Shown one piece after another: positions 23,883 to 64,000 of a stretch of 64,000 nucleotides of DNA (position 1 is its first letter; each line of letters opens with the position of its first letter). The notes beneath the pieces are model-generated. The model was not told the DNA's origin and searched no databases. It was given only the letters and a program-made list of their open reading frames with translations. Source of the stretch: Bacilli bacterium (lineage in GTDB: Bacteria; Bacillota_I; Bacilli_A; ML615J-28; CAG-313). The DNA is taken from the NCBI GenBank assembly GCA_017463365.1, contig JAFTPH010000038.1:329-64328 (forward strand), read 5' to 3'. A program made the translations under genes and the position numbers.

Positions 23883-24623
23883 TTATTTTTCTAAAAATTC
23901 TAATATATGACTATTTACAAAAGCACGTCTATCCATTCTTTGGTAGCAATGTTCTGATTCAGGTACCATATAGAATTCACAATTCGGATAAAGGTTTGCA
24001 TATTTTCTTCCGTATTCAATAGGAACAGACATATCTTTTTCTCCATGAATAATGATTACTGGTACATTTAAATTAGTATTTTGATATAAATCTAAATCAT
24101 CAAAACTATCAACAAAGGCCTTACTCATTAAGTAACCACCCATATCAATGTTATTTTCATCATACCAGATAACATTTGGATTATTACGATATCTACCTAC
24201 AACTGTTTGCATCATACTAGCAGCTGGTGAAAGTAAAACCAATTTTTCTAAATCAGCCTCAAATTCTTTAGCAACCATACTAGCGGCTGCTCCACCCATT
24301 GAGAAACCTAAAATAATTACTTTTTCATTAATTTTTAAATTTAATGCATATTTAACCATCGCTCTAGCATCACTCAATACAGTTTCAAATGTCATTTCAT
24401 TAAAACGTCCATCACTAATACCATTACCACGGTAATCGAATCTTACACTTGAATAACCATGTTCTGCAAGTCTAAAAGATAATTCTTTGAACATATATCC
24501 ATTTTCATTTAAATGTCCTGTAAAACCATGAAGCATGACAACTATTCCTTTAGAGTTTTCCACTTCATTAAAAATACCTCTTAAAGTATATCCTTCATTT
24601 ATTGTTTCTGCAAATTTAATCAT
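23883..24623 (-). CDS. Alpha/beta hydrolase (esterase)
   Basis: HGFTG, nucleophile GFSMGG, HGEKD and a C-terminal His. Last gene of the mur operon, followed by a hairpin at about 23850-23880. Confidence 0.85.
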   Translation of the reverse strand: MIKFAETINEGYTLRGIFNEVENSKGIVVMLHGFTGHLNENGYMFKELSFRLAEHGYSSVRFDYRGNGISDGRFNEMTFETVLSDARAMVKYALNLKINEKVIILGFSMGGAAASMVAKEFEADLEKLVLLSPAASMMQTVVGRYRNNPNVIWYDENNIDMGGYLMSKAFVDSFDDLDLYQNTNLNVPVIIIHGEKDMSVPIEYGRKYANLYPNCEFYMVPESEHCYQRMDRRAFVNSHILEFLEK

Positions 24624-25530
24624 TAATTCCCACCTCTTGTAATGCTTTACGAATATTTCCTTTATGTTTATTTAAAATTAAATCAACTTCTGCAACCTCA
24701 TCAATACCTGCTAAAATTCCAAGCATGGCCTTTTTAACTGAACCATATTTGTCAAAGGCAATTTTGGCATTTAAATCATCTAAACCAGTAACCTCTTTTA
24801 TTATACTAATTGAGCGAGCAACAAGTTTTTCATTAGTTGCTTGAACATCAATCATTAAGTTTTGGTATACTTTTCCCATTTTAACCATTGATGCTGTTGA
24901 AATCATATTACAAATCATTTTTTGAGCAGTGCCTGATTTCATTCTAGTTGATCCAGTAATTGGTTCAGCACCTGTTACAGCTTCAATTGGACAATCTACC
25001 ATACTTGATATAATAGTATTTGCACTTGTTGAAATACTTGCAGTTTTCGCACCAACTTGTTTTGCATATTCAATACCACCAATAACATAAGGCGTTCTTC
25101 CACTAGCAGCAATACCAATAACAATATCATTTTCTGTTAAATTAATACGTTTTAAATCTTCAATGGCCATTTCTTTAGAATCTTCAGCTCCTTCAACAGC
25201 TTGGACCATCGCACCCATTCCACCAGCCATTAAACATTGAACCATTTCTGGTGATACCCCATATGTTGGTTTACATTCAACAGCGTCAATTAAACCAATT
25301 CTTCCACTAGTTCCGGCTCCCATATATATTAGGCGCCCATCATTCATAAACACTTCATATACCATATCAACACATTTAGCAATTTGATCAAGAGCTTTTT
25401 CTACCGCTAACGCTACTGTCTTGTCTTCATTATTTAATTTAACAAGAATTTCTTTAGTTGATACTCTATCAATATCTAGTGTATTTTGGTTTCTACCTTC
25501 TGTTGTTATTTTTTTTATATTTACATTCAT
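24616..25530 (-). CDS. murQ: N-acetylmuramic acid 6-phosphate etherase
   Basis: TTEGRN, GAGTSGRIG, ECKPTYG, GIAASGRTPY and TGSTRMKSGTAQK motifs. Confidence 0.96.
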   Translation of the reverse strand: MNVNIKKITTEGRNQNTLDIDRVSTKEILVKLNNEDKTVALAVEKALDQIAKCVDMVYEVFMNDGRLIYMGAGTSGRIGLIDAVECKPTYGVSPEMVQCLMAGGMGAMVQAVEGAEDSKEMAIEDLKRINLTENDIVIGIAASGRTPYVIGGIEYAKQVGAKTASISTSANTIISSMVDCPIEAVTGAEPITGSTRMKSGTAQKMICNMISTASMVKMGKVYQNLMIDVQATNEKLVARSISIIKEVTGLDDLNAKIAFDKYGSVKKAMLGILAGIDEVAEVDLILNKHKGNIRKALQEVGIND

Positions 25531-25531
25531 T

Positions 25532-26710
25532 TTAATTCTCCTGAGGCAAGACCATACTACCTAAACTTACAGCTTTTTTAGCTCCTGTAACTTTAATAAC
25601 ATTACTTGCTTTGTTCATTATTCTTAAGTAACCTAAGACTACAAAACCTACAGCTTCTTTCGCATCCGCATTAATTCCTAAATCAAAGCCGGTAATAACT
25701 TTGTAGTTTTTCGTTTTATATTTTTTTAATAAATCTAAGATATATGGATTATTCGCACCCCCACCTGATACGACAAGTTCTCCATCATTAAAGTCTTCAA
25801 CAAAAGTTTCAACTTGATTGATAATTGACTTGGCTGTAAATGCGGTAAGGGTTGAGACGATATCTTCATCCTTTAAATTATATTCTTTTGCTTTTTCAAT
25901 TACTTTATTTAAAAACTCTTTACTATATTTTTCTCTACCTGTACTTTTTGGCGGTTGCATCTTGAAATATTCATCATCCATTAACTCATCTAAAATTTCA
26001 TCACAAACTTTACCACTTCTTCCAATTAAGCCAGATGCATCATATGGTTTACTAAATAACTTCATGCAAGATGCATCAATAAGCATATTACCTGGTCCAG
26101 TGTCAAAAGCAAATACTTCATCGATTTTCGCATTTTTTGGCATATAAGTAATATTACCAATCCCTCCGATATTTAGAAGTACTCTAGATATATCTTTATT
26201 TCTAAAAATCATAAATTCACTCATGGGAATAAGTGGAGCTCCACTTCCGCCATAAGCCATATCTAGGGTTCTAAAATCATAAATTACAAGTTTATTAAAG
26301 GCTGCACTAATTGTTGAAGCGTCCCCTAACTGTAAAGTAGATGAAGCATGCCCCCCTAAATTATTTGAATTATGCCAAACAGTTTGTCCGTGATTAGCAA
26401 TAAAATCTAACTTTTCTAAATCAAAACAAGCTTTCTCTAATACTTTTTTAACAGCTTCAACATAAGCATTTGATAACTCTACATTTAAACTACAGATTTC
26501 TTGAATATTGGAAGAATCTGGACTAGAGTTTTTTAAGACTTTTTGTTTTAAAGATTCTGGATAACTAATTGATTCAAACTCAACCATTTCGAAGGTTGGG
26601 TTTTTCTTATTGTTAATTTTAACTAAGGCGGCATCAACACCATCAAGGGATGTTCCACTCATTAATCCAACCGCATATAACACTTTTTTCTTTTGTAATT
26701 TCTTAAGCAT
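25532..26710 (-). CDS. anmK: Anhydro-N-acetylmuramic acid kinase
   Basis: GLMSGTSLDGVD, HGQTV, GAPL, NIGGIGN, FDTGPGN, PPKSTGRE and AKEA motifs. Confidence 0.95.
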   Translation of the reverse strand: MLKKLQKKKVLYAVGLMSGTSLDGVDAALVKINNKKNPTFEMVEFESISYPESLKQKVLKNSSPDSSNIQEICSLNVELSNAYVEAVKKVLEKACFDLEKLDFIANHGQTVWHNSNNLGGHASSTLQLGDASTISAAFNKLVIYDFRTLDMAYGGSGAPLIPMSEFMIFRNKDISRVLLNIGGIGNITYMPKNAKIDEVFAFDTGPGNMLIDASCMKLFSKPYDASGLIGRSGKVCDEILDELMDDEYFKMQPPKSTGREKYSKEFLNKVIEKAKEYNLKDEDIVSTLTAFTAKSIINQVETFVEDFNDGELVVSGGGANNPYILDLLKKYKTKNYKVITGFDLGINADAKEAVGFVVLGYLRIMNKASNVIKVTGAKKAVSLGSMVLPQEN

Positions 26711-27667
26711 TTATCCCTCCATCAAAACCTTAGTTTTTGATAAATAGTAAGCTCCAATTATTGGATCTTGTTCATCAATTAATAAATTAAATGATAAATT
26801 CTTCTCTTTTAACATTTTATCAACATTTTCTGGAATTATCTTATTATTCTTAAATAATCCCCCTTTAAAGCCCAAAATTGAGCCATTTTCGATGTTTTGC
26901 TTATTAACTAGTCTAATTATTCCATCTACAATTAAAGATGCTTCATTTTTCATAATGGTTAAAGCTTCTTCATCGCCATTTAAAGCAGCGGTTGAAATAA
27001 TAGATGCGAAAGAGGCAATTTCTCCTTTTGTTCTTAAATAAAAGATTGATTTAAGTTTAAATGGATCATTTATTTCAAAAGCTGATAAAAGTTTCTTATC
27101 TAGTTCAAGTAAAGCCATACTATGTTCAAAACGCATTATTAGTCTTTGACATGCATGGTGAACAAGTGAATAGGCACTACCATATTCACCAATAATATGC
27201 CCCCATCCGCCAATTAACTGTGTTTTACTATTTTTCATCCCACAGATTGCACTACCAGTTCCACCAAGAACTAAAATGCCTTCTTTTTCCTTATGATTAA
27301 TAATATCACTATAACTTTGACAAGTAACCGCGTATAACGCGATAATGGCATCATTCACAATATATACGGGACAATTAAACTTTTCTTTAAATTTTCTTTC
27401 AAGTGGCACAACATCAGGATGAACTCCCAAGCCACTTATTCCCATTGTAATATTTTTAAACTCATAAAGTTCATCAAATTTCTTAAATATTTCTTTTAAA
27501 GCTTTATCAATTGATAAGAACTCTAAATCTTTAGTAATGGCAGGACTACCAACTCCAATTAAAGATGTATTTAGAATAACACCATCTAAATCATAAATAT
27601 TAATTCTTGTTTTTGTTCCTCCCGCATCAATACATACCAAAACTGGTATTTTATTATTACTCTTCAT
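26711..27667 (-). CDS. BadF/BadG/BcrA/BcrD-type sugar kinase (MurK/NagK-like GlcNAc/MurNAc kinase)
   Basis: IDAGGTKT, VNDA, GGTGS and GGWGHIIGEYGSA motifs; lies within the mur operon. Confidence 0.82.
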   Translation of the reverse strand: MKSNNKIPVLVCIDAGGTKTRINIYDLDGVILNTSLIGVGSPAITKDLEFLSIDKALKEIFKKFDELYEFKNITMGISGLGVHPDVVPLERKFKEKFNCPVYIVNDAIIALYAVTCQSYSDIINHKEKEGILVLGGTGSAICGMKNSKTQLIGGWGHIIGEYGSAYSLVHHACQRLIMRFEHSMALLELDKKLLSAFEINDPFKLKSIFYLRTKGEIASFASIISTAALNGDEEALTIMKNEASLIVDGIIRLVNKQNIENGSILGFKGGLFKNNKIIPENVDKMLKEKNLSFNLLIDEQDPIIGAYYLSKTKVLMEG

Positions 27668-28712
27668 CCTTTTTCCCTTCAATCATAAAACTAAATTTTG
27701 TACCTGGTTTTAAAAGATTTAATAAATCATAGCCATATTCTGGAACATATCCAATAACATTGGCTTCTTCACACTCAACATCTCTCATCCAGATACCAAC
27801 TTCACCCATATATCTTAAGTTTAATTTGTTATCAACTGTAACTTGATATTTTTTAATTTTACCATTATTTTTAGGTTCAATATCAACTTTACTTCTTGTA
27901 CTTGATCTAATTAAATATGGACTTTGATCTGGTCTTGAGTGATGTGGGCCATTTAAAATTTTTAAAACATTTAGTGGCACATCTTCAGTTAGAACAAGTG
28001 GTATTTGAATACAATCTGCTGTACAACTAATCATTTCTAAGATTTCTTCTTCTGTTGAATATGCATCACCAATACCAATTTCATCAATACCAGTCATTAT
28101 TAATTCTTGCGTACTAATATAAGTTGGTTTGTAACGATGAGCTTCAATACTTGGAACTCCTTTATATAAAGGAGGACGCTTATTAATTAAGGAAGGAATA
28201 AACGCCATTGTGGTAAAACCTAATTCATGGAATACCATATTTTTTTGAATTAACTCATAAATATCTAAACCAGTAAATGGTTTGGGATAAAAATTATAAC
28301 TCATTCTTGTTTTTTTAGGATTTAAGCCTTTTTCTAACAATTTAACAAGTTTTTCAATCGAAATTGTTGAAGCATTAAGTTCAATATTACAATCTAATGT
28401 ATTAGACAACTCAACAATATCATCATCATTAAATCCCCAGTCAAGTCTTAACGCATAAGTACATTTAGGAATAACAAAGTTTTCCATCATTGGTTTAGAG
28501 ACATCAATAATTAGCTGCATACCATTTTTTTCAATAACACTTGCTAATTTATCAATTTCTTCTTGAATGTTGCCAGCCTCCGGAATATGAGCGGAAGTAA
28601 ACACTAATTTTATTCCCAGGTTTGCACACTCATTTAAGTATTCAAAGTTTTTTTCAATTGGGTAATCTTTTAACCCTTCATATACGGAAACAGCAAATTT
28701 TGTTTTTTTCAT
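27657..28712 (-). CDS. mupG: MupG (DUF871) 6-phospho-N-acetylmuramidase
   Basis: SVY, FTSAHIPE, LRLDWG, ELNAST, NFYPKPFTGL and PSIEAHR motifs. Confidence 0.88.
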   Translation of the reverse strand: MKKTKFAVSVYEGLKDYPIEKNFEYLNECANLGIKLVFTSAHIPEAGNIQEEIDKLASVIEKNGMQLIIDVSKPMMENFVIPKCTYALRLDWGFNDDDIVELSNTLDCNIELNASTISIEKLVKLLEKGLNPKKTRMSYNFYPKPFTGLDIYELIQKNMVFHELGFTTMAFIPSLINKRPPLYKGVPSIEAHRYKPTYISTQELIMTGIDEIGIGDAYSTEEEILEMISCTADCIQIPLVLTEDVPLNVLKILNGPHHSRPDQSPYLIRSSTRSKVDIEPKNNGKIKKYQVTVDNKLNLRYMGEVGIWMRDVECEEANVIGYVPEYGYDLLNLLKPGTKFSFMIEGKKDEE

Positions 28713-28719: not shown

Positions 28720-29865
28720 CTAGTAAATTAAATATTCTTTTCTAATATTCTTAAATTCAGCTTCATCTTTATCAAGAAGAGCCCATTCTTCTTCAAGGGT
28801 ATAAGTCATATCACGAATATAATCACATCCTGTTTCAAATTCAAACATACATGGACGTCCTTCTACGTATGGCGCATTAATCTTGAAGTGTTCAGGGTAA
28901 TTTTCTCTAATAACTTTAAGAATTGCCCAACTTGTTTTAATAGAATGACAAGCATTGCGGTCAGTTATATGTAAATATACTCCACCACATAATTCTCCTG
29001 CGTATTTTGAGAAAGTAGGCGTAAAGTATTGTGGTCTAAAATATACTCCTGGTAAATTTAATTCATTTAATTGGCGAGATAAAACCTCACTCTTCATCCA
29101 TGGAGCACCAAATAATTCAAATGGAGTTGTTGTTCCGCGTCCTTCAGCGACATTTGTTCCTTCTAATACACAAGTAATATTATAAGCATAAGCCGTATTA
29201 ATTGTTGGGAAGTTTGGAGAAGGAATAACCCAAGGAAGTGAAGTATCTTCAAAACTCATTGAACGTTCATAATTAAGCATTGGTATAACTTCTAAATCAC
29301 AACCAATTTTATATTCTTTATTAAATAATAAAGCTAGTTCTCCAATTGTTAAACCATGACGTTGTGGCATTGGATAATATCCAACAAATGAGCGATATTT
29401 TAAATCTAAAATATTTCCCTCAACTTTTTCACAATTAACTGGATTTGGTCGATCAAATACCACAAATTTTTTTCCATATTCTTTACAAGCTTGCATACAA
29501 TAAGCCATTGTATAGATAAATGTGTAATAACGAGAACCAACATCTTGAATATCAATTGTCATCACATCTACCGCATCCATCATTTCTTTAGTTGGTCTGC
29601 GAGTTTTTCCATATAAACTATATACAGTAATTCCTGTTTCATCATCAATATATGTTTCTAAATGTTGCCCTGCTTGAATAGATGCACGAACACCATGTTC
29701 AGGTGAGAATAAACCCACTAAATTAGTTTGTTCACGTAAGATATCAATACTGCTTTTAAAGTTCCCATCGATACCTGTTGGATTAGTAATTAACCCAATT
29801 CGTTTATTTTCAAATATATTTTTAAATTCACTTACTCTTTCAATACCTAAAATAGTTCTACTCAT
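28720..29865 (-). CDS. namZ: Exo-beta-N-acetylmuramidase NamZ (DUF1343)
   Basis: GLITNPTG, FSPEHG, SLYG, DIQDVGSRYYT, DRPNP, PSPN and EGRGT motifs; no signal peptide. Confidence 0.92.
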   Translation of the reverse strand: MSRTILGIERVSEFKNIFENKRIGLITNPTGIDGNFKSSIDILREQTNLVGLFSPEHGVRASIQAGQHLETYIDDETGITVYSLYGKTRRPTKEMMDAVDVMTIDIQDVGSRYYTFIYTMAYCMQACKEYGKKFVVFDRPNPVNCEKVEGNILDLKYRSFVGYYPMPQRHGLTIGELALLFNKEYKIGCDLEVIPMLNYERSMSFEDTSLPWVIPSPNFPTINTAYAYNITCVLEGTNVAEGRGTTTPFELFGAPWMKSEVLSRQLNELNLPGVYFRPQYFTPTFSKYAGELCGGVYLHITDRNACHSIKTSWAILKVIRENYPEHFKINAPYVEGRPCMFEFETGCDYIRDMTYTLEEEWALLDKDEAEFKNIRKEYLIY

Positions 29866-30532
29866 TTTCTTCTTCCTCCTCGTCTACTTGACGCATAATT
29901 TTTTCAAAATCAATTTTATTTAAACGGTAATATAATGGTTCGCAAACCTTTATTACTAAAAATGCCGGTCCACTTAACCCTACTAAAAACCAAATTGGGG
30001 CCGCAACAATTCCCACAATTGAAATAACAAATAACACTAAAGCAATTAAAGTAATTCCAATATATCTAAAAGCAATAAACATTGAAGTTTTTAATAACTC
30101 TTTAGTTCTTAAAGTTTTAAAAGTCACTATTAGTAGTGGAATATGTAAAACCATGATAACTATGATAACAATAAAAATAAACATAATCCAAAAACCAATA
30201 TTTGATAATAACTCTCCCGGAGCAATCTTACCATAGTAATACCACATACTAATTCCGGCAATTACTAAGATTATCCCAATCACAAGTTCCATGATAAAAC
30301 TTTTTTCCGAGTATTTCATAAAATTACTGAAATACATTCTTATTGGTTTATTAGGTCCTTCTGTAATAGAATCTTTTATTGTTGCGTACATCGCAGTAAT
30401 GGCCGGTAAAATTGTTATAATTGGAATTAATAATAAAATTGTCATAATATTGACAAATACTAACATAAACAACCATTCAAAAAAACGATGGGCTTTACTA
30501 TTATATTTTCTTTCAATATCCAAGAAAATCAC
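29858..30532 (-). CDS. YesL/DUF624-family membrane protein
   Basis: Multi-pass membrane protein with ILPAITAMY and FSNFMK pattern. The true start may be the TTG at 30523. Confidence 0.7.
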   Translation of the reverse strand: MIFLDIERKYNSKAHRFFEWLFMLVFVNIMTILLLIPIITILPAITAMYATIKDSITEGPNKPIRMYFSNFMKYSEKSFIMELVIGIILVIAGISMWYYYGKIAPGELLSNIGFWIMFIFIVIIVIMVLHIPLLIVTFKTLRTKELLKTSMFIAFRYIGITLIALVLFVISIVGIVAAPIWFLVGLSGPAFLVIKVCEPLYYRLNKIDFEKIMRQVDEEEEENE

Positions 30533-30645: not shown

Positions 30646-32286
30646 TTATCCTGCTAATAAAGCATCTAATTCTTTTTGATAAATATCTTGTAATGAACTT
30701 AATACTACAGATGGAGTCTTATCTCCTTTAGAGTTAACAATTAAGCTTGATGATTGAGGATAAATACCATATTCACCATAGTGAGATCCATCACCTAAAC
30801 TCATTGAAACTACACCGATCATTTCGAAATAAGTTAATCCTTCAGTAGTTTGAACATCCATGATTGCAGCTACAGATTCTGCAGAGTCAATTCTAGCTTC
30901 TAAGTAAGCTTGATATTTTTCATCTGGAGATAATGCTGTTGATTTAGATTCAGGTTTTAAACCATTTGTTAAATCATCAAAGATGTTGAATAAGATAGCA
31001 GAACTTAATCCGTTTTCTCCGTTTTCAACGCTACGAATAGCATACATACCTTCATATCCAATAGGAATTTGATATGTATCTAAGTTAACATCGTCATCGT
31101 TTCTTGGATAAGGAACAGCTGAAATTGAGAAGTCTAAAGTAGCTGGCCAACGTTCAGCATTTCCATAGAACCACATACCACCAGTTTGGAATAATACTAA
31201 TCCATCTTTGAAGTTAGTAGTTGAAACTGTTGATCCGTTTGGTTCCCAATATAAGTTTTCAATTTCTTGTAAATCAGAGAATACATCAATTACAGTTTGG
31301 CTTGTTAATAATACACGACCATTTTTAATGAATGCTCCACCACGTGCTGCAACTAAACCTTTAGCAACATCGAAGTAGTCTCCACCAAATGCCCATTTTT
31401 CACCTTTTTCTTTTTCAGCATCAAATAAAGCTTGAGCTTGAGCTAATAAATCTTTAAATGCGCTCCATGTCCATTCATTATTGTTCCATAATGTAGCTGG
31501 ATCTGGTAAGTTATATTGGTCAATTAAGTCTTGATTATAGTGTAACCAGTGGTCAGGACGAGCTTCACCACTTGCATAAGCATAAACTTTACTATTGTAT
31601 TGTCCCATTAAATTATAGTTATTAGATTGTTCATAGTTATAATCTGTGAAAATACCAGTTTCACGTTTAGTATTATATAATTCAGCGATAGCACTATTTC
31701 TAGCAAGAGTTGGAACCCAGCTAGAGTCAATTAAGAAGATATCACCAACATCAGTACCATTTAAAACACCTGTGAAGATCCATTTAACACGTTCAGGTCC
31801 CCAAGGAGCTTCAGCTGGATAATCTTTATAAACGATATCGATATTATATTCAGATTCAATTTTAGCGATTAATTGACGTTTTTCAGTTTTTCTTTCTCCA
31901 CTATAGTTTGCATCGTTAGGGTCATATTCACTTACTGGTAAAACCATAATTTCGATTTCCATACCTTTTCCGTCCCAATCGTCTTTGTTATATTCCCAGT
32001 TCCAAGTTTCTGGGTCTAAGCAAAGTTCATTTTCACGGTCTAATGCGCAGTTAACGTCAGTAGGATTTATACCTGAGTCTCCTCCTTGATAATTTGGATC
32101 TTTAGCATCACAAACAGTACATTTTCCATCTTTAAATGTATGTCCATCTTTACATTTATCAGTTACTTGTGTACCACTACCACCGTCAGGATTATCTGGA
32201 GTTTCTTCTCCACCACCACATGCTGTTAACGCAAAAATTCCAAATAACATTACAACTGCTAATAAGAAATATTTTTTAAGTTTCAT
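30646..32286 (-). CDS. Carbohydrate ABC substrate-binding lipoprotein
   Basis: Lipobox LTAC, YNQDLI..YNLPDP..LW...EWTW and VPYP (SBP family 1/8 pattern); has its own promoter and terminator. Confidence 0.85.
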   Translation of the reverse strand: MKLKKYFLLAVVMLFGIFALTACGGGEETPDNPDGGSGTQVTDKCKDGHTFKDGKCTVCDAKDPNYQGGDSGINPTDVNCALDRENELCLDPETWNWEYNKDDWDGKGMEIEIMVLPVSEYDPNDANYSGERKTEKRQLIAKIESEYNIDIVYKDYPAEAPWGPERVKWIFTGVLNGTDVGDIFLIDSSWVPTLARNSAIAELYNTKRETGIFTDYNYEQSNNYNLMGQYNSKVYAYASGEARPDHWLHYNQDLIDQYNLPDPATLWNNNEWTWSAFKDLLAQAQALFDAEKEKGEKWAFGGDYFDVAKGLVAARGGAFIKNGRVLLTSQTVIDVFSDLQEIENLYWEPNGSTVSTTNFKDGLVLFQTGGMWFYGNAERWPATLDFSISAVPYPRNDDDVNLDTYQIPIGYEGMYAIRSVENGENGLSSAILFNIFDDLTNGLKPESKSTALSPDEKYQAYLEARIDSAESVAAIMDVQTTEGLTYFEMIGVVSMSLGDGSHYGEYGIYPQSSSLIVNSKGDKTPSVVLSSLQDIYQKELDALLAG

Positions 32287-33477: not shown

Positions 33478-33511
33478 ATAAAAATATGAGGAAGATTAAA
33501 TCTTCCTCATA
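33478..33511 (-). terminator. Terminator after the large surface protein gene
   Basis: TATGAGGAAGA-TTAAA-TCTTCCTCATA inverted repeat with a plus-strand A-run. Confidence 0.7.
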
Positions 33512-54820: not shown

Positions 54821-54832
54821 ATTCGCCACCTC

Positions 54833-55855: not shown

Positions 55856-55857
55856 GA

Positions 55858-57219
55858 CTAATTGCCTACCCTTCTTAAAATTTTCTTAATTAATCCGTTT
55901 GCTAAAATCATTACTAAGAATAAGATTGTAGCGATTGCAGAAGCATAACCCATTTCCATACGTAAGCTACCATAGTCCATCAAGTGGGTAATGATTGTAT
56001 GCCCGGCATACTCAATTGATGGGAATCCCGCAATTTGGATTGATACAGCTGCGACTGATAAACTTGATGTAATTTGCATTACCGCCCCGAACATTAATTG
56101 TGATTTCATTTGTGGTAAAGTAATAAACCATAGTTCTTGCCAACGGCTCTTAATACCGTCAATCGCACCAGCTTCATATAATTCTTTATTAACTGATTGT
56201 AACCCGGCGATGAAGGCTAGGAACGAAACCCCTAAACTCATCCATAATTGTACAATCATAACAATCCAGATAATGTAATCGGCATTTTGTAACCATAAGA
56301 CAGGTTCTTGAATAATACCAAGTTGCATTAGGATTGAGTTAGCATAACCATAAATATCACTACTGAAAATTAATTTCCATACTAAGTATACGTTACCTGA
56401 AATAGATGGAGCGTAGAATATTAAGGTCATAAATGCTCTTAATTTTGGTTTTAATTCATTGATTAACCATGCGAAGATAAATGCCATTAAGTAACTTAAT
56501 GGACCAGTTACTACCGCAAGTAATAATGTATTTCTGATCGCAATAATAAATACTTTATCATCTACGAAAAGTCTCATGTAGTTTTCCCAACCTACAAATG
56601 AAGGAAACTCTAAAAGGTTGAAGTATGTAAATGATAATACAAGTGACATTACAACCGGTAATACTGTAAAGATAAAGAATAAGATTGTGTAAGGAGCAAC
56701 TAAATAGTAGTATTGACGTTTGATGTACATTTCTCTACGTAAGCGTCCACCACGTTTACTCCAACGTTCAAGTTTGTATCCTAAAGATGCACGTTCTTTT
56801 TCAATTCTTAATTTTTGAACTAATCTTTCATGATCTTTTGAATAAGCAAAGTATGCATCTTCTGCTTCTTGATTTGTTTTATCAGCGTAGTATGCTTTCT
56901 TTAATTCGTCATATTTAACTTGACTTTCAGCAACACGTTTCTTTAATTCAACAATATTTTCTTTAACTTGAGCATCGAAAGCTTCATCTTCTGCTTTCCA
57001 TTCGGCTTTTTTGTTTTTAATAGCTTCACGAAGTTCAGCTTTACGATTCAATTTTTCTGCTCTTTCAAGAGCAGCTTTTTCACGTCTTTCAGCTCTTGTT
57101 GCAGGTGCGCCATTAGCTCTATCAAGCTTTTTATTTTTCATGACATATCTTACAATTCCAAAAGCAATTAACGCGAATATTACTGAGAATACTATATATA
57201 AAATTACGTTAAATTCCAT
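55858..57219 (-). CDS. Carbohydrate ABC permease (MalF-type) with an N-terminal TM and coiled-coil extension
   Basis: FYAPSI, LYEAGAIDG..SRWQELW.ITLP and MGYASA motifs; about 150 extra N-terminal residues. Confidence 0.9.
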   Translation of the reverse strand: MEFNVILYIVFSVIFALIAFGIVRYVMKNKKLDRANGAPATRAERREKAALERAEKLNRKAELREAIKNKKAEWKAEDEAFDAQVKENIVELKKRVAESQVKYDELKKAYYADKTNQEAEDAYFAYSKDHERLVQKLRIEKERASLGYKLERWSKRGGRLRREMYIKRQYYYLVAPYTILFFIFTVLPVVMSLVLSFTYFNLLEFPSFVGWENYMRLFVDDKVFIIAIRNTLLLAVVTGPLSYLMAFIFAWLINELKPKLRAFMTLIFYAPSISGNVYLVWKLIFSSDIYGYANSILMQLGIIQEPVLWLQNADYIIWIVMIVQLWMSLGVSFLAFIAGLQSVNKELYEAGAIDGIKSRWQELWFITLPQMKSQLMFGAVMQITSSLSVAAVSIQIAGFPSIEYAGHTIITHLMDYGSLRMEMGYASAIATILFLVMILANGLIKKILRRVGN

Positions 57220-57222: not shown

Positions 57223-60200
57223 CTACTCCTCTTCATCAGATGCAAGCGGTAAGCCGAATTCTCCACGCTTACGATCGATTTCGTTGTTAATGTTGTTTGC
57301 ATATTCATACAATGTTTCTTTTGCGTTAACTAAGTTATTGATTACTTCACGGAAGGCATTTTCAACTTCACGACCTGTAATATAACTTCCGGCAATATTT
57401 GGCATATGGTGAACACCATATACGTTTTTATAAACTTTTCCATCACTGTTAGCGGCTGTAAATGCGGCAACTTCATTTCCGTTAACAACAACAGATGAGT
57501 CTGTTTCTTCAGAGAATCCCCATTGTTTTAATAATTGATTTAAGTCATCTTTAGGCCATGCAAGTCCTTTTAATGCGTCAATGTTTGCTGTTGCTTGACG
57601 AGCTGCAGATCCTAAGATACCTTCCATTTCTTGACCGAATAATGTTTGTGTTTCTGTGCTAGTCCACCATTTTAAGAATTCCCAAGATGCGTCACGAATG
57701 CTTTCGTCTGCTTCAGCTGGTCCTCTTAAGATTACCGCTCCAGTACCACTTACCACTGATGTATGGTCGATATATACTTCACCATTATCATCTACACGGT
57801 AGCTACCTGGAATTGGATAGTATGACCAAGTACCACGAAGTTCAGGGGCAAATACTGATAATGTATTATATGTTTCATAATAAGCAATACCAATTGGCAT
57901 TTCTCCTGAACGGAAACGGTTAATGAATGATGCATATGATGGGAATGAATATAATGTGTAGAATTCAGTCCATGTTTCAAATGCTTCCATTCCAACATTG
58001 TTTAATAAACCTGTTTCTTTATTGTCATTGATGTATAATTCTCCACCCATTTGGTAAAGTAATGATACAAAGATTGGGTTAAGTGCAGTAGCTCCAGAAT
58101 CATTTACTGGTAAATAGAATTGTAATTGTTCTGCTTGTAAATTAGCAACTAAGTCAATTACTTCATCCCAAGTATTAGGAACTTTATCTGCCCAACCATA
58201 TTTTTCCATGATGTCATCGCGGACGAACATCATTAAGAATAATTCTTTTTCTGGTAAAGCGTAAACTTCAACATTTCTTCCTTCAGCTCCACCCCAGTCA
58301 AATGTGAATAAGGCGTTACCACTATTAGAGAATTGTTTTGCTACTTCTTCATAGTCTTCAAATTGACTAATATCGTATACCGCATTACGTAAACCATAGT
58401 TAACTGGTAATGAGCTATCAACGTTAATCGCAACGTCTGGTCCAATTCCAGCAAGTGTAGATTTTAATAATACGTCTGTACCAGTAATCTTTAAGTCAAT
58501 TTGAACTCCAGTTTTAGGTGTGAAGTTTTCATCGGCTAAACGTCTAATTACGTTAGCTTGGTCACGTCCTAAAGTCATCCAAACTTCGATTGTTTCAGTT
58601 ACTTCTGCATCTGTATCCATTGCTCCAATTGTTGAGTAATCGATAAAGAATGAATAGAAGAAATTAACGATTCCATCCCATAATCCTTTAAAGAATCCTT
58701 CGTTAGCTTTTGGTAATTCATAATCAGGTGTGTGAACCATGATATAGTCAACCATAAGTGGCGCTTCACGTAAGTCAGCAAGGATTGTACCAAGTGATGA
58801 AATGTTGTTACTAAATGTTCCAAGTCTTGATGGAAGGCTTCGAGCCTCATCTTCTAAGAAGTCTTCAAGTTGTACTACGAATGTATCAATAACCCCTGTT
58901 TTATCTGATTGTGTTCCAGATATATCAGAGATAGATTTTGAAACTGTTTCAAGTCTTGTTTTGGCAGTTTCTAAACGTTTCATTAAGTTAAGTTCAGTAC
59001 GATTAGCAAGTTCATAGTCACGTCCAGCATCCGGAGATGTTGTAGTGAACTTGATAATTTCTAAGTATAAGTCATTTAAGTAGGCAACAATGTCTTCAAT
59101 TTCTTCAACTAAGGCTGCATAATCTCCAAGTGTTACTTCCATTGTGATTGTGTGAGTACCTTTTGTTAAGTAGAATTCAAATTTTTCTTGTTCATTACCT
59201 AGTGTTAATAATTGCCAATCTGATGAATAAGAGAAAATAGTTTGTTTTAATTCATCGAATGCAACCTCACCATCGATATAAACAATACGGTTAGAGTACA
59301 TACCTCTTACTGTAGATTGCTTAGCTCTTAAAGAGATGTTATAGTAACCATCTGCAGGAACTTCTACTTCCCATGTAATCCAGTCTCCTAAAACTCTCCA
59401 GCTATCTCCACCGATAGAGTTTAATCTAGTTGCTGAATATTCATATGGATATGTCATTGAGCTTGTACGGTCTGTTTGAGGATATAATGTTGGAGATGAT
59501 TTAGAAATTGCAGCTTCTGCTTCAACTCTTGATGAATATGTTCCAGCTTCTACGTTTTTACCCTCATTTGAAGCTTTATATTCTTCATAACTCATACCTT
59601 CTTGAATACTTTCAACAGTAAGTTTGTCAATAAGTATATTTTCTTTAACCGCATCAAGTTCGATTGTGTTCATTCCTTTTTCAAAATAGAACATATAAGG
59701 TTCAGTTGTATAACCCATATCATCTTTGAAATAAGCAGTTCTTAATTCAGGATTTTCTTGTTGTTTAGGTTTAACATCATTACCTTTAGTATCAACTTCT
59801 GGTTTAATAGTTGTTAAATAGTTATTAGTATCACTAGTGTCAAGTTCAATAATATCTAATCCGTTACCCCAAACACGTGAGAATACGAATGTTGTAGTTT
59901 TATCAAACATTTCTTCTCCGTTAATAGATAATCTTCTTTCAATTGCTGAAGAAGTACCTTTGATTGGATAATAAGTAAGTTTTAAATTATAGAAACCTGC
60001 CTCAGGAACATTAATTTCCCAAGTTACACTACCTTTATCAGGAGTATAAAGTAACTTATCATTAACATCATCTGTATCCTTGATATTTAAAGATTCGTCA
60101 TCTTTATCGTAAACAACAAGTGTTCCTTCTTCTGTTAATTCACTTAAGCTTTTACTGTAATCAACACCAGCAACGCTTACACTTACTCCTTTTGGAGTAC

Positions 60201-60393
60201 CAGCATTACTATGTTCTTTTTTCATTTTTTCCAAATACGAATTATAATCATTCGAATTGGCAGTAGTTGTCGTTTCTTGTGGATTGTATGTATAAGTGAT
60301 CGGTTTAGAACCAGTATTGTTAAAAATAACAATTACCGCTACAACAAGCACTAATACAACAAGTGTGACAAGAACAAATCGCTTTTTCTTCAT
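57223..60393 (-). CDS. Large extracellular solute-binding protein with N-terminal CBM-like beta domains
   Basis: N-terminal membrane anchor, two WE.(N/E)VP.(A/D)G.YN modules, then an SBP region (GPDV, P.TWD, FRSGEMP, WEFLKWW). Confidence 0.82.
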   Translation of the reverse strand: MKKKRFVLVTLVVLVLVVAVIVIFNNTGSKPITYTYNPQETTTTANSNDYNSYLEKMKKEHSNAGTPKGVSVSVAGVDYSKSLSELTEEGTLVVYDKDDESLNIKDTDDVNDKLLYTPDKGSVTWEINVPEAGFYNLKLTYYPIKGTSSAIERRLSINGEEMFDKTTTFVFSRVWGNGLDIIELDTSDTNNYLTTIKPEVDTKGNDVKPKQQENPELRTAYFKDDMGYTTEPYMFYFEKGMNTIELDAVKENILIDKLTVESIQEGMSYEEYKASNEGKNVEAGTYSSRVEAEAAISKSSPTLYPQTDRTSSMTYPYEYSATRLNSIGGDSWRVLGDWITWEVEVPADGYYNISLRAKQSTVRGMYSNRIVYIDGEVAFDELKQTIFSYSSDWQLLTLGNEQEKFEFYLTKGTHTITMEVTLGDYAALVEEIEDIVAYLNDLYLEIIKFTTTSPDAGRDYELANRTELNLMKRLETAKTRLETVSKSISDISGTQSDKTGVIDTFVVQLEDFLEDEARSLPSRLGTFSNNISSLGTILADLREAPLMVDYIMVHTPDYELPKANEGFFKGLWDGIVNFFYSFFIDYSTIGAMDTDAEVTETIEVWMTLGRDQANVIRRLADENFTPKTGVQIDLKITGTDVLLKSTLAGIGPDVAINVDSSLPVNYGLRNAVYDISQFEDYEEVAKQFSNSGNALFTFDWGGAEGRNVEVYALPEKELFLMMFVRDDIMEKYGWADKVPNTWDEVIDLVANLQAEQLQFYLPVNDSGATALNPIFVSLLYQMGGELYINDNKETGLLNNVGMEAFETWTEFYTLYSFPSYASFINRFRSGEMPIGIAYYETYNTLSVFAPELRGTWSYYPIPGSYRVDDNGEVYIDHTSVVSGTGAVILRGPAEADESIRDASWEFLKWWTSTETQTLFGQEMEGILGSAARQATANIDALKGLAWPKDDLNQLLKQWGFSEETDSSVVVNGNEVAAFTAANSDGKVYKNVYGVHHMPNIAGSYITGREVENAFREVINNLVNAKETLYEYANNINNEIDRKRGEFGLPLASDEEE

Positions 60394-60394: not shown

Positions 60395-62218
60395 TTAGTT
60401 GCCTCTTTCTTTCAATTTTTTTAAGATTTCAATTAATTGGTGAAGGCGTAAAGCACTAAACTTATAACCTTCCATTTTATTTCTCGCTTCCCACAGCGTT
60501 TTGTGAACATCTAGATAATTAGTTAAACTGAAAATGCAATTATCTAATGATTCAAGGTATCCATGACCATCAAAATATGCCTTAAGCATCATATTGACGT
60601 CTAAAAGAGTAGTTAATAACTCAATACTTCCAAGAATTTCATTTGTCACTAAAGAATCATCTTTAACAACCCTTTTCTTTAAAGCATCAAATTCTAACGT
60701 TAACGCATAAGCTTCTTCGTTTGATAAAAGATTATACGTCATTTTATTTAAAAAGAAACCTAGTTTATCAGATTCATTTTTAGCACCTTCACTATGAAGT
60801 ATTACACTAAATAGCTTGCTGCCATATGATCTGTAAGCTCCTTCTAAGCGTGTGTAGGTCGATAAATCTAGTATTAGGGTAGCATTAATAACACCTACTA
60901 GTTCTTCTAATACTACTTTTATCAAATACTCTGGACTATTATCAACATTCCAACTACACATAGCTCCATAGATAATTCCCGGATAGCTATATGGTAAATA
61001 TTGTAAATGTCCTAAATCTCCCCAATCTGTTAGTAACATTCCTTCCCCTCCATACGCCCTTGTATAAAAACAAGCATTGCGGATGGTTGTCACCATTTCT
61101 AAATACCTTGAGGTAATTACTCCCCAAGTCGAAGTTGCTGGCGCTGTCGTAAATTTAACATCTAATTCTTTCAGCAATTTCGAATTTTTGTGATACGGAT
61201 AATCTACATTGTATCCCCAATCAACAAAAATAACATCTTTTGGTAGTCGCTTAATTGACTCAGGATGTTTGAGTAAAACGTCTCCCCAAATTAAGGGTGT
61301 TTTACCATGTTTTTTAACATGTTCGTAAAGAGTTAAGAAATAATCAACAAAGACTTCACCTTCACCCTTTTCTAAAACAATGTCTTTACTTTTGCCATGA
61401 CCTAGTTCAAATGGTTCATCAAAATTCATATTGAAGAATTTTGATTTTGTATGTGGTAAGAAATCATCGTATAAACTTTTTACAAACTCAATACTTTTTG
61501 GATTACTAGGATCCAAGGTCGAAGGAGTTCTTTTACTTCCCCACATTTCAAATAAACCATCAACTTCTGAAAGTTCTTTAAATTTATCTTGTAATAACCA
61601 ATCTTGCATATGACCAAAACCATTTTCATTTGGCACTAAATCAATAAAGTGATCATTTGCGTAATCCTCAAGAAGAGCATATTGTTCAAATGTTAAATAG
61701 TTTTTATCAATTAAAACTTCTGGATAAATTGTTGACTCTAAACTAAAACCTTCAACATATAGTTCTAAGTGATTGTACTTTAAACTAGATAGTAAATCAA
61801 TAACTTCTTTAATTGTCTCGATTTTAGGAACTTTTGACCTTGAGATATCCATCATAAATCCTCTAATCTTTAAATCAGGATAATCATATATCTCACAACA
61901 TCTTATTTTAGATTCTTTTAAAGCCAACCATTTCAGGCTCATAACAGCATAAAAAGCTCCCGTATCGGTCGATGAACTAATCACAATTTCTTGTTCATTA
62001 ACCACAATTTGGTAAGCTTCTTCCTTCAAACAATCTATTTTTTTTATTTTTAGAGTTATTTGTTTTTCTGAAGACGGCCATTTGCTTGTTAGTTCACTAA
62101 TTCGCTCTTGCAATCTGGTACTTGTATCAAAGTCATTTTGGATAATTTTTACATCACGCGTGATTTCTAAAAACCCTGGCAAGACTTTATACTGTTTAAG
62201 TATTGGAACCGCTTGCAT
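60395..62218 (-). CDS. GH20-family beta-N-acetylhexosaminidase
   Basis: IYDYPDLKIRGFMMDISR, FGHM, catalytic NFDE, WGD and TDWGD.GH motifs; no signal peptide. Confidence 0.85.
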   Translation of the reverse strand: MQAVPILKQYKVLPGFLEITRDVKIIQNDFDTSTRLQERISELTSKWPSSEKQITLKIKKIDCLKEEAYQIVVNEQEIVISSSTDTGAFYAVMSLKWLALKESKIRCCEIYDYPDLKIRGFMMDISRSKVPKIETIKEVIDLLSSLKYNHLELYVEGFSLESTIYPEVLIDKNYLTFEQYALLEDYANDHFIDLVPNENGFGHMQDWLLQDKFKELSEVDGLFEMWGSKRTPSTLDPSNPKSIEFVKSLYDDFLPHTKSKFFNMNFDEPFELGHGKSKDIVLEKGEGEVFVDYFLTLYEHVKKHGKTPLIWGDVLLKHPESIKRLPKDVIFVDWGYNVDYPYHKNSKLLKELDVKFTTAPATSTWGVITSRYLEMVTTIRNACFYTRAYGGEGMLLTDWGDLGHLQYLPYSYPGIIYGAMCSWNVDNSPEYLIKVVLEELVGVINATLILDLSTYTRLEGAYRSYGSKLFSVILHSEGAKNESDKLGFFLNKMTYNLLSNEEAYALTLEFDALKKRVVKDDSLVTNEILGSIELLTTLLDVNMMLKAYFDGHGYLESLDNCIFSLTNYLDVHKTLWEARNKMEGYKFSALRLHQLIEILKKLKERGN

Positions 62219-62353: not shown

Positions 62354-62390
62354 AAAAAATAAGGTGTTAATCACAATAATTAACACCTTT
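62354..62390 (-). terminator. Terminator after the GHL10 gene
   Basis: AAGGTGTTAAT...ATTAACACCTT inverted repeat with a plus-strand A-run. Confidence 0.7.
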
Positions 62391-62401: not shown

Positions 62402-63658
62402 TTATTTTACCCAACGAGCCTTTAATTTAGCAAGTCCAGCATCTTTAACTTCATTTTTACCAGGCACTAAATCATGGTAAGTAAAGAAGATTGTTCCAGC
62501 AATATTATCATGTAAACAATTGAAACATAATTGATTATCAATTTCATCTGGGTTTGCCCAAACTTCATTTGAACCCATTTGATAAATTGCTTGCCCAATA
62601 TATAATGTTGTATTAGTCTTAGCGGCCATTTTAGCCCACCATGCGGCTAAATCATGATAGTTAACATCTTTTCTTTCGAATGGGAAATAAAGTTGTGGAA
62701 CTACATAATCGATCCAACCTTTTTCCATCCAGTAGTAAACATCACTGTAAAGACTTGAATAGCATTCACATACTCCAGTCGCATGGAATGACCCCTCACT
62801 CCATCCATTAGGATCTAAGGCACTATTAGTACGATAGATTCCAAATGGGCTAATTCCAAACATAACTTTCTTTCCAGTTTTGTCAAACGATTTTTTCAAC
62901 CCTTCATGAACACTTTTAATCATCTTATTTACATTGTCGCGACGCCAATCATCAAATGTTCCAACAAAACCATTTTTTACCGCTTCATTAAAATCATCTT
63001 CTTCTAATTCAGAAGGTACTTTCGCATATGGATAGAAGTAATCATCAATGTGAACACCTGTTACATCATAGTTATCAACAACTTCCATAATTGTATCAGT
63101 TACAAACTGAATAACTTTTTTGCTAGCTGGTTTTAAGATAACTTTATTTGTTCCATCTAAAATTGTACAATCAGGATTTAAACGAGCAAAGTTATTTTCT
63201 GATAAAGTATTTAAATACTCTTCTTTTGTCATTTCAAGTTTATCTAAAGCTTCAGTTGAAACACGATATGGATTCATCCAAGCATGAACTTGAATATTGT
63301 ATTTTTTAGCTTCATCAATTACAAATTGTAATACATCAAAACCTGGGTCACGTCCTTCAACCCCAGTAATATATTTACTCCAAGGGTTTAATTTAGAAGG
63401 GTAGTATGCATCATTTGTTGGACGCACTTGGAAGATGATTAAGTTCATATTGTATGAAGCAATATTTTTAATCATATCTACTAAATATTGTTTATAACTT
63501 TCAACATCAACCATTTTAGGAGTATCAATATTAACAACGTTTGATACCCATACCCCACGAACATCACTATCACGATAAGTGTATTCAGGTAGTTCAACTA
63601 CTTCTTGATTACCATAATAATAAACGTATTCTTCACTTGCATATTTTTTTAGTTTCAT
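62402..63658 (-). CDS. Glycosyl hydrolase-like 10 (DUF187/DigH-like)
   Basis: RGVWV, FQVRP..DAYYPS, HAWMNPYR, GVHIDDYFYPY, WRRDNV, FGISPFG and IDYVVPQLY motifs; no signal peptide. Confidence 0.9.
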   Translation of the reverse strand: MKLKKYASEEYVYYYGNQEVVELPEYTYRDSDVRGVWVSNVVNIDTPKMVDVESYKQYLVDMIKNIASYNMNLIIFQVRPTNDAYYPSKLNPWSKYITGVEGRDPGFDVLQFVIDEAKKYNIQVHAWMNPYRVSTEALDKLEMTKEEYLNTLSENNFARLNPDCTILDGTNKVILKPASKKVIQFVTDTIMEVVDNYDVTGVHIDDYFYPYAKVPSELEEDDFNEAVKNGFVGTFDDWRRDNVNKMIKSVHEGLKKSFDKTGKKVMFGISPFGIYRTNSALDPNGWSEGSFHATGVCECYSSLYSDVYYWMEKGWIDYVVPQLYFPFERKDVNYHDLAAWWAKMAAKTNTTLYIGQAIYQMGSNEVWANPDEIDNQLCFNCLHDNIAGTIFFTYHDLVPGKNEVKDAGLAKLKARWVK

Positions 63659-63659
63659 A

Positions 63660-63998
63660 TTATCTTTCCTTCTTTAAAGTTATTATTCCTAACGTTACAA
63701 TACTAATTAAACCAATAATAACCATTGATAATTCTTTTTTACATCCTTTTTCATTTGGAGTAGGTGGAGTTGGATCAGATGGTTCTACTGGTGGAGTTGG
63801 ATTATCAACTTCCACTTTTTCAAAAATCGGATTAACTACTAAATTTTCTGTTACATTATCAAATTCTTGATCCCAACCTACAAACTTATATCCTTCTTTT
63901 GTTGGATCTTCTGGAGCTTTTACGGATGCACCTTCTTCTACTTCAACTATTAATAATACATGTCCATCACCATCAGTAAATGTTACTGTATAAGTAGG
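63660..63998 (-). CDS. C-terminal part of a surface protein with an InlB B-type repeat and GCKK-TM tail (5' end outside the window)
   Basis: Not in the ORF track. Hand translation: PTYTVTFTDGDG...APEDPTKEGYKFVGWD...NPTPPVEPSDPTPPTPNEKGCKKELSMVIIGLISIVTLGIITLKKER*. Confidence 0.85.
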   Translation of the reverse strand, partial: PTYTVTFTDGDGHVLLIVEVEEGASVKAPEDPTKEGYKFVGWDQEFDNVTENLVVNPIFEKVEVDNPTPPVEPSDPTPPTPNEKGCKKELSMVIIGLISIVTLGIITLKKER

Positions 63999-64000
63999 AG

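Follow-up and report, generated by a model that had tools for sequence, protein, structure and literature searches.

What does a bacterium with a genome of 1.74 Mb do with a 40-kb block of genes for surface proteins, an elaborate importer and amino-sugar metabolism, and whose cell walls would such a block serve to consume? The block lies at positions 23883-64000 of the window, by which we mean the whole 64,000-nucleotide stretch under analysis (G000:C16:329-64328), and it makes up 2.3% of the draft genome of a Bacilli bacterium (65 contigs, 97.4% complete, about 30% G+C). Counting open reading frames (ORFs) from 100 amino acids (aa) upward and assigning families by Pfam and NCBIfam profile matches, we found 27 ORFs in the block, every one on the minus strand. 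Family content and gene order suggest that the locus is probably a polysaccharide utilization locus (PUL) of a Gram-positive type that is specialized on peptidoglycan, and mainly on wall material not made by the cell itself. Conservation of the locus extends over an order of gut Bacilli with small genomes. An original prediction, made from this same stretch, had described about 25 co-oriented genes of named families; all of those families were recovered, together with three phosphodiester glycosidases of the NAGPA family that it had not listed. Its proposal of a PUL-like use of largely foreign walls probably holds as well, given that the locus is conserved in the order, is kept in relatives lacking penicillin-binding protein (PBP) and MraY genes, and resides in a genome without GlmS.

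The argument for peptidoglycan starts with enzymes that appear to work inside the cell, among which families specific for N-acetylmuramic acid (MurNAc) are present at or above curated cut-offs. Calls of export and membrane anchoring, here and below, come from inspection of N- and C-terminal hydrophobic segments, including transmembrane (TM) segments, and not from a trained predictor. In the direction of transcription, the enzymes are as follows (values without units are E-values).

62402..63658, minus strand: cytoplasmic GHL10 enzyme, 418 aa (Pfam GHL10 3.7e-63; PDB 5oq2, Cwp19, 1.3e-75; no N-terminal hydrophobic segment)
60395..62218, minus strand: GH20 beta-N-acetylhexosaminidase-like protein, 607 aa (Glyco_hydro_20 1.2e-18, 20b 7.9e-13; no signal peptide)
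38477..40042, minus strand: GH3 NagZ-like beta-N-acetylglucosaminidase, 521 aa (Glyco_hydro_3 3e-77; PRK05337 181 bits, cut-off 207; no signal peptide)
37735..38475, minus strand: NagB glucosamine-6-phosphate deaminase (TIGR00502 291 bits, cut-off 237)
32429..33415, minus strand: double-GNAT acetyltransferase, GlmA-like (Acetyltransf_1 in two stretches; PDB 5kf1 3.6e-34)
28720..29865, minus strand: homolog of the exo-beta-N-acetylmuramidase NamZ, GH171 (NamZ_N 1.8e-86, NamZ_C 1.1e-46; no signal peptide)
27657..28712, minus strand: MupG-family protein, GH170 (MupG_N 2.8e-51, MupG_C 7.3e-21; PDB 2p0o 9e-27)
26711..27682, minus strand: BadF-type sugar kinase, MurK-like (BcrAD_BadFG 2.1e-19; PDB 8zo3 2.9e-16)
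25532..26710, minus strand: AnmK anhydro-MurNAc kinase (NF007148 442.3 bits, cut-off 387)
24616..25530, minus strand: MurQ MurNAc-6-phosphate etherase (TIGR00274 364.8 bits, cut-off 302)
23883..24623, minus strand: cytoplasmic alpha/beta-fold carboxylesterase, last gene of the locus (Hydrolase_4, Abhydrolase_1)

The matches of AnmK, MurQ and NagB exceed the curated NCBIfam equivalog cut-offs. The 418-aa GHL10 enzyme resembles Cwp19 (5oq2) across the whole catalytic domain (residues 19-406), and the kinase aligns over its full length with 8zo3, deposited as an 'N-acetylmuramic acid/N-acetylglucosamine kinase', while scoring 80 bits against the NCBIfam model NagK_SO3507 (cut-off 370). The best PDB match of the double GNAT, full length over residues 6-323, is 5kf1, a 'predicted acetyltransferase' of 328 aa that we take to be GlmA of Clostridium acetobutylicum. 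Fifty-nine PDB GH20 sequences matched the GH20 protein at E up to 0.001, the nearest including lacto-N-biosidases, and the esterase, which stands at the locus end in the loci of 17 relatives, has S33-type and feruloyl/cinnamoyl carboxylesterases as its best PDB relatives. The Pfam match of NamZ begins at residue 23 with no hydrophobic segment ahead of it, so the protein is not of the secreted type. No export signal was seen in the GHL10 enzyme, GH20, NagZ, NagB, GNAT, NamZ, MupG, either kinase, MurQ or the esterase. Because the exo-enzymes among them lack export signals, oligosaccharides would be imported and dismantled inside the cell.

The remainder of the locus appears equipped for such import, and for work at the surface.

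63660..64000, minus strand: C-terminal tail of a surface-tethered GHL10 protein (Flg_new E 1.4e-10; C-terminal TM, hydrophobic segment at fragment residue 88)
57223..60393, minus strand: giant membrane-tethered solute-binding protein, 1056 aa (SBP_bac_8 1.4e-13, weak CBM_35; N-terminal TM segment)
54833..57219, minus strand: first pair of ATP-binding cassette (ABC) permeases, 453 and 340 aa (BPD_transp_1; UgpA/UgpE- and MalF/MalG-like matches)
52961..54829, minus strand: NHL-repeat surface protein (NHL 2.5e-06; signal peptide and C-terminal TM anchor, TM at residues 7 and 586)
52314..52958, minus strand: Yip1-family polytopic membrane protein (Yip1 3.2e-15; six hydrophobic segments)
48867..52301, minus strand: DUF5696 ectoprotein with N-terminal anchor, 1144 aa (DUF5696 3.9e-142; TM segment at residue 7)
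46698..48879, minus strand: second ABC permease pair, 374 and 356 aa (BPD_transp_1)
45996..46673, minus strand: DUF624/MusI-family membrane protein (Pfam DUF624, NCBIfam MusI_fam)
40049..45975, minus strand: three NAGPA paralogs, 648, 651 and 666 aa (PF09992, E 3e-25 to 2e-27; signal peptide and C-terminal TM anchor)
33553..37602, minus strand: large immunoglobulin (Ig)-like surface protein, 1349 aa (Bact_surface_Ig-like; signal peptide and C-terminal TM anchor, TM at residues 27 and 1316)
30646..32286, minus strand: lipoprotein, 546 aa (lipobox-like LTAC motif at the N-terminus; no Pfam family)
29858..30532, minus strand: second DUF624/MusI membrane protein (Pfam and NCBIfam)

The uptake cassette runs in the order binding protein, two permeases, NHL, Yip1, DUF5696, two permeases and DUF624. 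The 546-aa lipoprotein, 14 kb downstream and retained at its position in relatives, may be its second binding protein. Pfam found no ABC_tran domain in the locus, i.e., the cassette comes without an ATPase. Neither the DUF5696 protein nor the 1349-aa protein had a sequence match in the PDB. For the latter, present at the same position in nine relatives, an AlphaFold2 (AF2) model of the N-terminal 533 residues was unusable (pLDDT 47.5), and an atlas search returned Ig-like families only, with a best score of 0.77, which is a lead at most. A promoter-like site lies ahead of its gene at 37598-37570, and its true start is probably the Met at 37521.

These parts can be ordered into a proposed pathway. 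Outside the cell, membrane-tethered GHL10 enzymes related to Cwp19 would cut glycan strands, the three tethered NAGPA enzymes would hydrolyze N-acetylglucosamine (GlcNAc)-1-phosphodiesters, and the large Ig-like protein may bind substrate. To judge by family and by the conserved cassette, the giant binding protein and the lipoprotein would feed the two permease pairs, which may act with the NHL/Yip1/DUF5696 trio and the two MusI-like proteins and be driven by an ATPase encoded elsewhere. Inside, the family assignments predict that the second GHL10, GH20, NagZ, NamZ and MupG dismantle the oligosaccharides; the GlmA-like GNAT would re-acetylate glucosamine residues and the esterase may take off O-acetyl groups. 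The MurK-like kinase and AnmK would produce GlcNAc-6-phosphate (GlcNAc-6-P) and MurNAc-6-phosphate, and MurQ would yield GlcNAc-6-P and D-lactate. The GlcNAc-6-P could then be burnt via NagA (encoded on contig C28) and NagB or, because the genome lacks GlmS, enter the cell's own UDP-GlcNAc.

Whether all of these genes serve one substrate is a fair question, as terminator-like hairpins split the locus on its coding strand at three places (62389-62361, 33516-33480 and 23879-23856).

62361..62389, minus strand: terminator-like hairpin after the GHL10 gene (13-pair stem, then T-run)
33480..33516, minus strand: terminator-like hairpin after the gene of the 1349-aa surface protein (17-pair stem, then T-run)
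23856..23879, minus strand: terminator-like hairpin closing the locus (10-pair stem, then T-run)

Two unrelated neighbors could thus stand side by side, the upstream half (GH20, cassette, NAGPA, NagZ and NagB) acting on a different glycan rich in GlcNAc (host mucin, chitin or a GlcNAc-1-phosphate polymer, for example), and only the unit from GNAT to esterase acting on MurNAc. GH20, NagZ and NagB are generic amino-sugar enzymes, lacto-N-biosidases are among the nearest GH20 structures, and NAGPA has a predicted substrate only. Yet the upstream part itself opens with Cwp19-like GHL10 genes, and Pfam found no other glycoside-hydrolase family, such as those of the chitin or mucin type, in the locus. 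The downstream unit encodes no permease of its own beside its binding lipoprotein and MusI-like protein, and would need the upstream channels. Moreover, the two halves stay together in all 12 relatives mapped, and in genome G154, described below, the cassette directly adjoins the MurNAc genes. We therefore regard separate functions for the halves as quite improbable.

The comparison with relatives drew on an order sample of 61 genomes, comprising our genome, 36 others of its family (f1) and 24 of the sister family (f2), and on a synteny set of 12 relatives in the two families whose contigs are long, with as much as 60 kb surrounding MupG taken from each. The original prediction had proposed a synteny comparison; the gene order from GHL10 to esterase was the same in 12 of 12 loci. 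Copy numbers there ranged from one to three for GHL10 and from zero to three for NAGPA (zero in all four f2 loci), and the BadF-type kinase was undetected in five. In the order sample, MupG occurs in 54 genomes and MurQ in 53. In f1, a housekeeping flank (TrpRS-ArsC-CYTH-pseudouridine synthase-ClpP) lies, whole or in part, beside the locus, which argues for vertical descent. MupG and a second GH3 NagZ share one frame of about 850-1185 aa in many f2 genomes and in the f1 genomes G007 and G010. Frames of about 850-895 aa characterize the fusion loci L030, L039, L040, L041, L044 and L045 of f2 and G010, the frame being 849 aa in G039, a genome without PBP and MraY.

A class-wide comparison of MupG in 250 scored genomes placed close relatives (at least 35% identity) in 24 of 27 genomes of f1 and f2 and in one outsider, G154, from another family of the class. 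This outsider carries a compact version of the locus with GHL10, surface GHL10, a beta-lactamase-fold protein and the cassette, the last directly adjoining the series NamZ-NagZ-MupG-kinase-AnmK-MurQ-NAGPA, in which NAGPA stands beside MurQ. This second arrangement ties both the cassette and NAGPA to MurNAc catabolism.

The original prediction of a locus of some 40 kb was right in that the block is real, but the locus is larger: it is cut by the contig end, and further genes lie on contigs C62 and C18. The window stops about 700 bp short of the end of C16, inside the surface GHL10 gene, and a GHL10 profile match just beyond it (C16:64822-65013) belongs to the same gene as the tail at 63660-64000. 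Upstream, the loci of relatives continue with genes for surface GHL10 proteins (822-979 aa), for an M19 dipeptidase and a PIG-L deacetylase, and for a beta-lactamase-fold protein. In our genome, C62 carries an M19 dipeptidase, a GHL10 of 760 aa and, truncated at the contig end, the beginning of a further GHL10, and C18 carries a 383-aa beta-lactamase-fold protein (best NCBIfam match PBP4B), a PIG-L protein, a 778-aa GHL10, a GxDLY-SGNH esterase and an SIS protein. The 760- and 778-aa GHL10 proteins both have a signal peptide and a TM anchor. Contig ends share the same GHL10 sequence in two pairs, C62 with C41 and C16 with C25; the first pair ends in the same GHL10 protein sequence and the second begins with its continuation. 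The assembly breaks at these ends because two surface GHL10 paralogs are nearly identical. No RNA run was listed among sequencing runs containing the stretch, and the three DNA runs listed belong to a single study, perhaps the one from which the DNA derives. On C18, the esterase (367 aa, cytoplasmic) and the SIS_2 sugar-isomerase-domain protein (241 aa) lie behind the 778-aa surface GHL10 (G000:C18:22596-24443), and the gene of a 4024-aa surface protein (C18:703-12777) lies upstream, several genes before that of the beta-lactamase-fold protein.

Whose wall is eaten is a separate matter. The original prediction had pointed out that no biosynthetic genes lie nearby, and profile searches indeed found no mur or PBP gene in the window. 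The genome-wide check for such genes that it had suggested located them elsewhere: two PBP transpeptidase matches, MraY, eight Mur-ligase-family matches, MurB, and MurA at 389 bits (cut-off 393). A wall-less state of this organism was thus rejected. Because this genome makes peptidoglycan, the locus might do nothing but recover the cell's own turnover products, its size being due to the thick wall of a Gram-positive cell and to limited biosynthesis. The nearest operons that have been studied serve recycling, in the available text of their reports (PMC8054146, PMC6262408), the hydrolases are anchored in the membrane of the cell that makes them, and the locus has a fixed position on the chromosome and is vertically inherited, all of which would fit. 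We nevertheless consider recycling as the sole function unlikely, given the evidence from wall-less relatives and from amino-sugar supply.

The PBP transpeptidase (PF00905) and MraY (PF00953) families were both unfound in 14 of the 61 genomes of the order sample. Twelve of these are at least 92% complete (11 from f2, one from f1), and MupG was present in 11 of the 12, MurQ in 10, both together in 10, and NAGPA in all. One of them, G039 (1.0 Mb, 97% complete), retains the whole locus as intact ORFs. If such relatives make no peptidoglycan, their locus would be usable only on the walls of others.

The second line of evidence is the supply of amino sugars. GlmS was unfound in our genome, where the sole match was the SIS domain of MurQ at 17 bits; as a control, the search found GlmS in 14 of 14 genomes. 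Within the order sample, GlmS exceeded its cut-off in a single genome (G004), in which MupG, MurQ and NAGPA were not found, and in which a glmS-glmM-glmU-like trio adjoins pgk-tpiA. A tblastn search with the GlmS, GlmM and GlmU-like proteins of G004 gave no match in our genome, and the adjacent pgk and tpiA matched at 74-79%. Its own GlmU match spans profile positions 2-234 only (the uridylyltransferase half) in a 244-aa frame, and the sole GlmM-like match is a 570-aa phosphohexomutase on C63 scoring 100 bits against a cut-off of 448. Without GlmS, recycling of the own wall cannot give net growth, and the net supply of amino sugar would therefore be external. These gaps also speak against the purely catabolic pathway of the original prediction: with no GlmS, no canonical GlmM and a halved GlmU, it is likely, as far as gene content can tell, that the cell builds its own UDP-GlcNAc from GlcNAc-6-P salvaged through the locus. 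Reliance on recycling alone is also hard to reconcile with six NAGPA genes in a genome where neither LCP nor a TagO-type gene was found.

The genome has nine GHL10 profile matches, corresponding to about seven genes. The GHL10 domain of Cwp19 degrades peptidoglycan to 1,6-anhydroMurNAc muropeptides, according to the part of the report available (PMC6016235), and the locus enzymes are by analogy putative lytic transglycosylases of the Cwp19 type that would leave 1,6-anhydroMurNAc ends. The original prediction had taken AnmK as a sign of E. coli-type walls. This is not needed, because GHL10 enzymes resembling Cwp19, a lytic transglycosylase, number about seven and could supply anhydro-MurNAc within the system. 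That the presence of all entry routes points to chemically diverse walls, as it had also proposed, is conceivable. Such enzymes could also be weapons: the products of some seven GHL10 and six NAGPA genes, which mostly carry a signal peptide and membrane anchor, might mainly lyse living neighbors in a bacteriolytic or epibiotic manner, with uptake as clean-up, and in the accessible portion of the same report Cwp19 causes lysis of Clostridioides difficile (PMC6016235). However, Pfam matches revealed no endopeptidase, lysozyme-type killing domain, secretion system or immunity gene in the locus, and enzymes fixed to the membrane can act only on material in contact with the cell. Offense and feeding on shed fragments or dead cells would look alike in these data, and we hold a mainly offensive use to be very improbable.

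Several points weigh against our preferred reading of the locus as a system for peptidoglycan that is largely foreign. The specificities of GH20, DUF5696, NAGPA, the Ig-like protein, the lipoprotein and the esterase were assigned by family only. Given the three terminator-like hairpins, the locus probably forms at least three transcription units and not a single operon, and in the present assembly the AmiE/PBP4B-like, PIG-L and M19 genes lie on other contigs. The relatives are kin, so that the counts among them overstate independence. The MupG proteins of the order form a distinct clade, 27-36% identical to other MupG-like proteins of Bacilli, and remote members of the family may differ in function, as noted in the available part of the MupG report (PMC6262408). 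Recovery of own turnover products is certainly possible for this genome, and the membrane-tethered hydrolases sit beside the cell's own wall. Finally, NagB running backwards from fructose-6-phosphate and ammonia could replace GlmS, which would remove the argument from auxotrophy.

The NAGPA enzymes deserve separate consideration, both for their number and for what they might explain about MupG. An AF2 model of the middle paralog, built on 20 sequences (pLDDT 85.5), shows a catalytic domain with the NAGPA fold together with a TM helix and a pair of FN3-like domains; Foldseek matched it to 3ohg (bacterial DUF2233) and 6pki (vertebrate NAGPA) with probability 1.00. The motif DGGGS (D379-S383) is invariant in all 20 aligned sequences, and in the consulted text of a 2026 structural study on the vertebrate enzyme this loop is invariant from man to bacteria and recognizes GlcNAc-1-phosphate (PMC13474241). 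NAGPA was found in 58 of the 61 genomes, and single genomes reach as many as 10 matches. Our genome has six such genes, three in the locus and three outside; the extra copies (676-687 aa; G000:C58:2033-6242 and C38:3180-5210) have the same signal peptide and C-terminal TM-anchor ending as those in the locus. Our literature search turned up no bacterial NAGPA with an established substrate and, in a paper that also mentions teichoic acid, found NAGPA named only as a fused domain.

MupG poses a related puzzle. In the locus NamZ adjoins MupG; in the accessible part of the NamZ paper, NamZ is missing whenever MupG is present (PMC8054146), and in that of the MupG paper, the substrate of the Staphylococcus aureus enzyme is made by the MurP phosphotransferase system (PTS) (PMC6262408). 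A PTS as supplier of the MupG substrate was rejected here: EIIC (PF02378) was unfound in our genome and found in six of the 61 genomes of the order. LCP was likewise unfound in our genome and found in three of the 61, and a second PF00953 gene, of the TagO type, was found in none, ours included. We tentatively suggest that NAGPA might strip teichoic acids or other polymers off foreign peptidoglycan at the GlcNAc-alpha-1-P-6-MurNAc linkage, leaving MurNAc-6-phosphate residues in the strands that would, after import, be released by MupG or the NagZ-MupG fusion; combined with the loss of GlmS, the whole order might then be obligate wall eaters, the walled members building their own wall from this supply. 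This is a doubtful though coherent possibility. The scarcity of LCP and EIIC and the lack of a TagO type, set against NAGPA in 58 and MupG in 54 of 61 genomes, would agree with it, as would the invariant DGGGS motif for GlcNAc-1-phosphate and the position of NAGPA beside MurQ in G154. All three genomes without NAGPA are also without MupG, a weak point since they represent only two genera. Alternatively, the kinase may phosphorylate MurNAc at the end of an oligosaccharide, or the MupG clade of this order may have another specificity. If cleavage at the linkage unit were true, it would give GH170 a PTS-independent role and provide the first enzyme known to cut that unit.

The flanks in the window hold housekeeping genes (TrpRS, PheST and ClpP) and an Opp-type importer, and the locus end was set at 23883, with the closing hairpin directly beyond. 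Pfam matches revealed no regulator in the window, hence no MurR there. Between the locus terminator and TrpRS, behind the terminator-like hairpin, lies a two-gene unit (22199-23783, minus strand) encoding a 270-aa protein with weak HipA_C and PI3/PI4-kinase matches and a 265-aa protein without family; it has its own promoter-like site (23831-23803), and its slot varies in length and content among relatives. The Opp-type peptide importer (12373-20674, minus strand) has an oversized binding protein of 812 aa and an oversized ATPase of 715 aa with an inserted region, and was rejected as part of the locus as it is not retained beside it in relatives. Farther away are an Abi_2 (abortive-infection-like) protein (6683-7678, minus strand), between PheS and a gene without family, and, 20 kb from the locus, a 609-aa protein with aBig_2 and Amidase_2 (MurNAc-L-alanine amidase) domains (798-2627, minus strand), which may serve as an autolysin or else belong to the equipment for wall eating.

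Peptidoglycan is among the most abundant polymers of the gut, where fragments of it act as strong immune signals, while little is known of the organisms that remove it there. The locus is a concrete and widespread candidate for such removal, in an order of uncultured small-genome Bacilli, some of them wall-less, that would devote to it a machine of about 45 kb. In an RNA stable isotope probing study, 13C from dead E. coli cells was assimilated mainly by Acholeplasma, which would bear on the present order to the extent that the two are kin. For enzymology, the locus offers a NamZ predicted to be cytoplasmic next to a MupG without a PTS, a candidate substrate for the bacterial NAGPA proteins and a natural substrate for the NHL/Yip1/DUF5696 cassette. 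The loss of GlmS in walled bacteria, if true, would extend a dependence of the Tannerella type to all amino sugars and would explain the resistance of these organisms to cultivation. A literature search retrieved no paper describing such a locus, and the species lists of the MupG and NamZ papers may already include members of the lineage.

Among known systems, C. acetobutylicum has a kinase route with MurK and GlmA, and Tannerella forsythia scavenges MurNAc and depends on external wall sugar. The first has parallels in the BadF-type kinase, which among PDB entries matches a MurNAc/GlcNAc kinase best, and in the double GNAT with its best match 5kf1. The second has a parallel in the dependence on external wall sugar, which here would extend to every amino sugar, with MurA and MurB retained; the locus also adds surface enzymes and a large importer. 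The murQ-murR-murP-amiE-nagZ-namZ operon of Bacillus subtilis, as far as the available text describes it (PMC8054146), shares homologs of MurQ, NagZ and NamZ, and its AmiE has a counterpart in the AmiE/PBP4B-type beta-lactamase-fold protein linked to the locus in relatives. By contrast, no MurP PTS was found in our genome, the locus is about 10 times larger, and it adds the ABC cassette, GHL10, NAGPA, AnmK, MupG, the kinase and GNAT; moreover, NagZ, NamZ and AmiE are secreted in B. subtilis, whereas here NagZ and NamZ lack a signal peptide and would act inside. The S. aureus cluster mupG-murQ-murP-murR, again from a partial view of the source (PMC6262408), likewise has a MupG-family gene near MurQ, although here the genes for the kinase and AnmK lie between them. 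There, MurNAc-6P-GlcNAc comes from the MurP PTS, whereas here EIIC was not found (six of 61 genomes in the order), NamZ stands beside MupG, and the sister family has a fusion of MupG with a second NagZ. C. difficile Cwp19, in the accessible parts of its description (PMC6016235; PDB 5oq2), resembles the locus GHL10 over the full length of the catalytic domain (E 1.3e-75), but is an autolysin with signal peptide and CWB2 repeats, whereas here one copy is cytoplasmic and the others have Flg_new repeats and a C-terminal TM anchor. Likewise, the vertebrate uncovering enzyme NAGPA (PDB 6pki, 6pku; PMC13474241, available in part) has the same fold by Foldseek and the invariant DGGGS loop; the locus copies, at less than 20% identity, are TM-anchored proteins of the bacterial surface that carry an inserted beta domain and a pair of FN3-like domains. 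The parts themselves are thus known families, and the system belongs with known peptidoglycan salvage; it stands apart by the way the parts are assembled, by exo-enzymes kept in the cytoplasm, by a MupG without a PTS, by the expanded NAGPA set and by the connection with the loss of GlmS.

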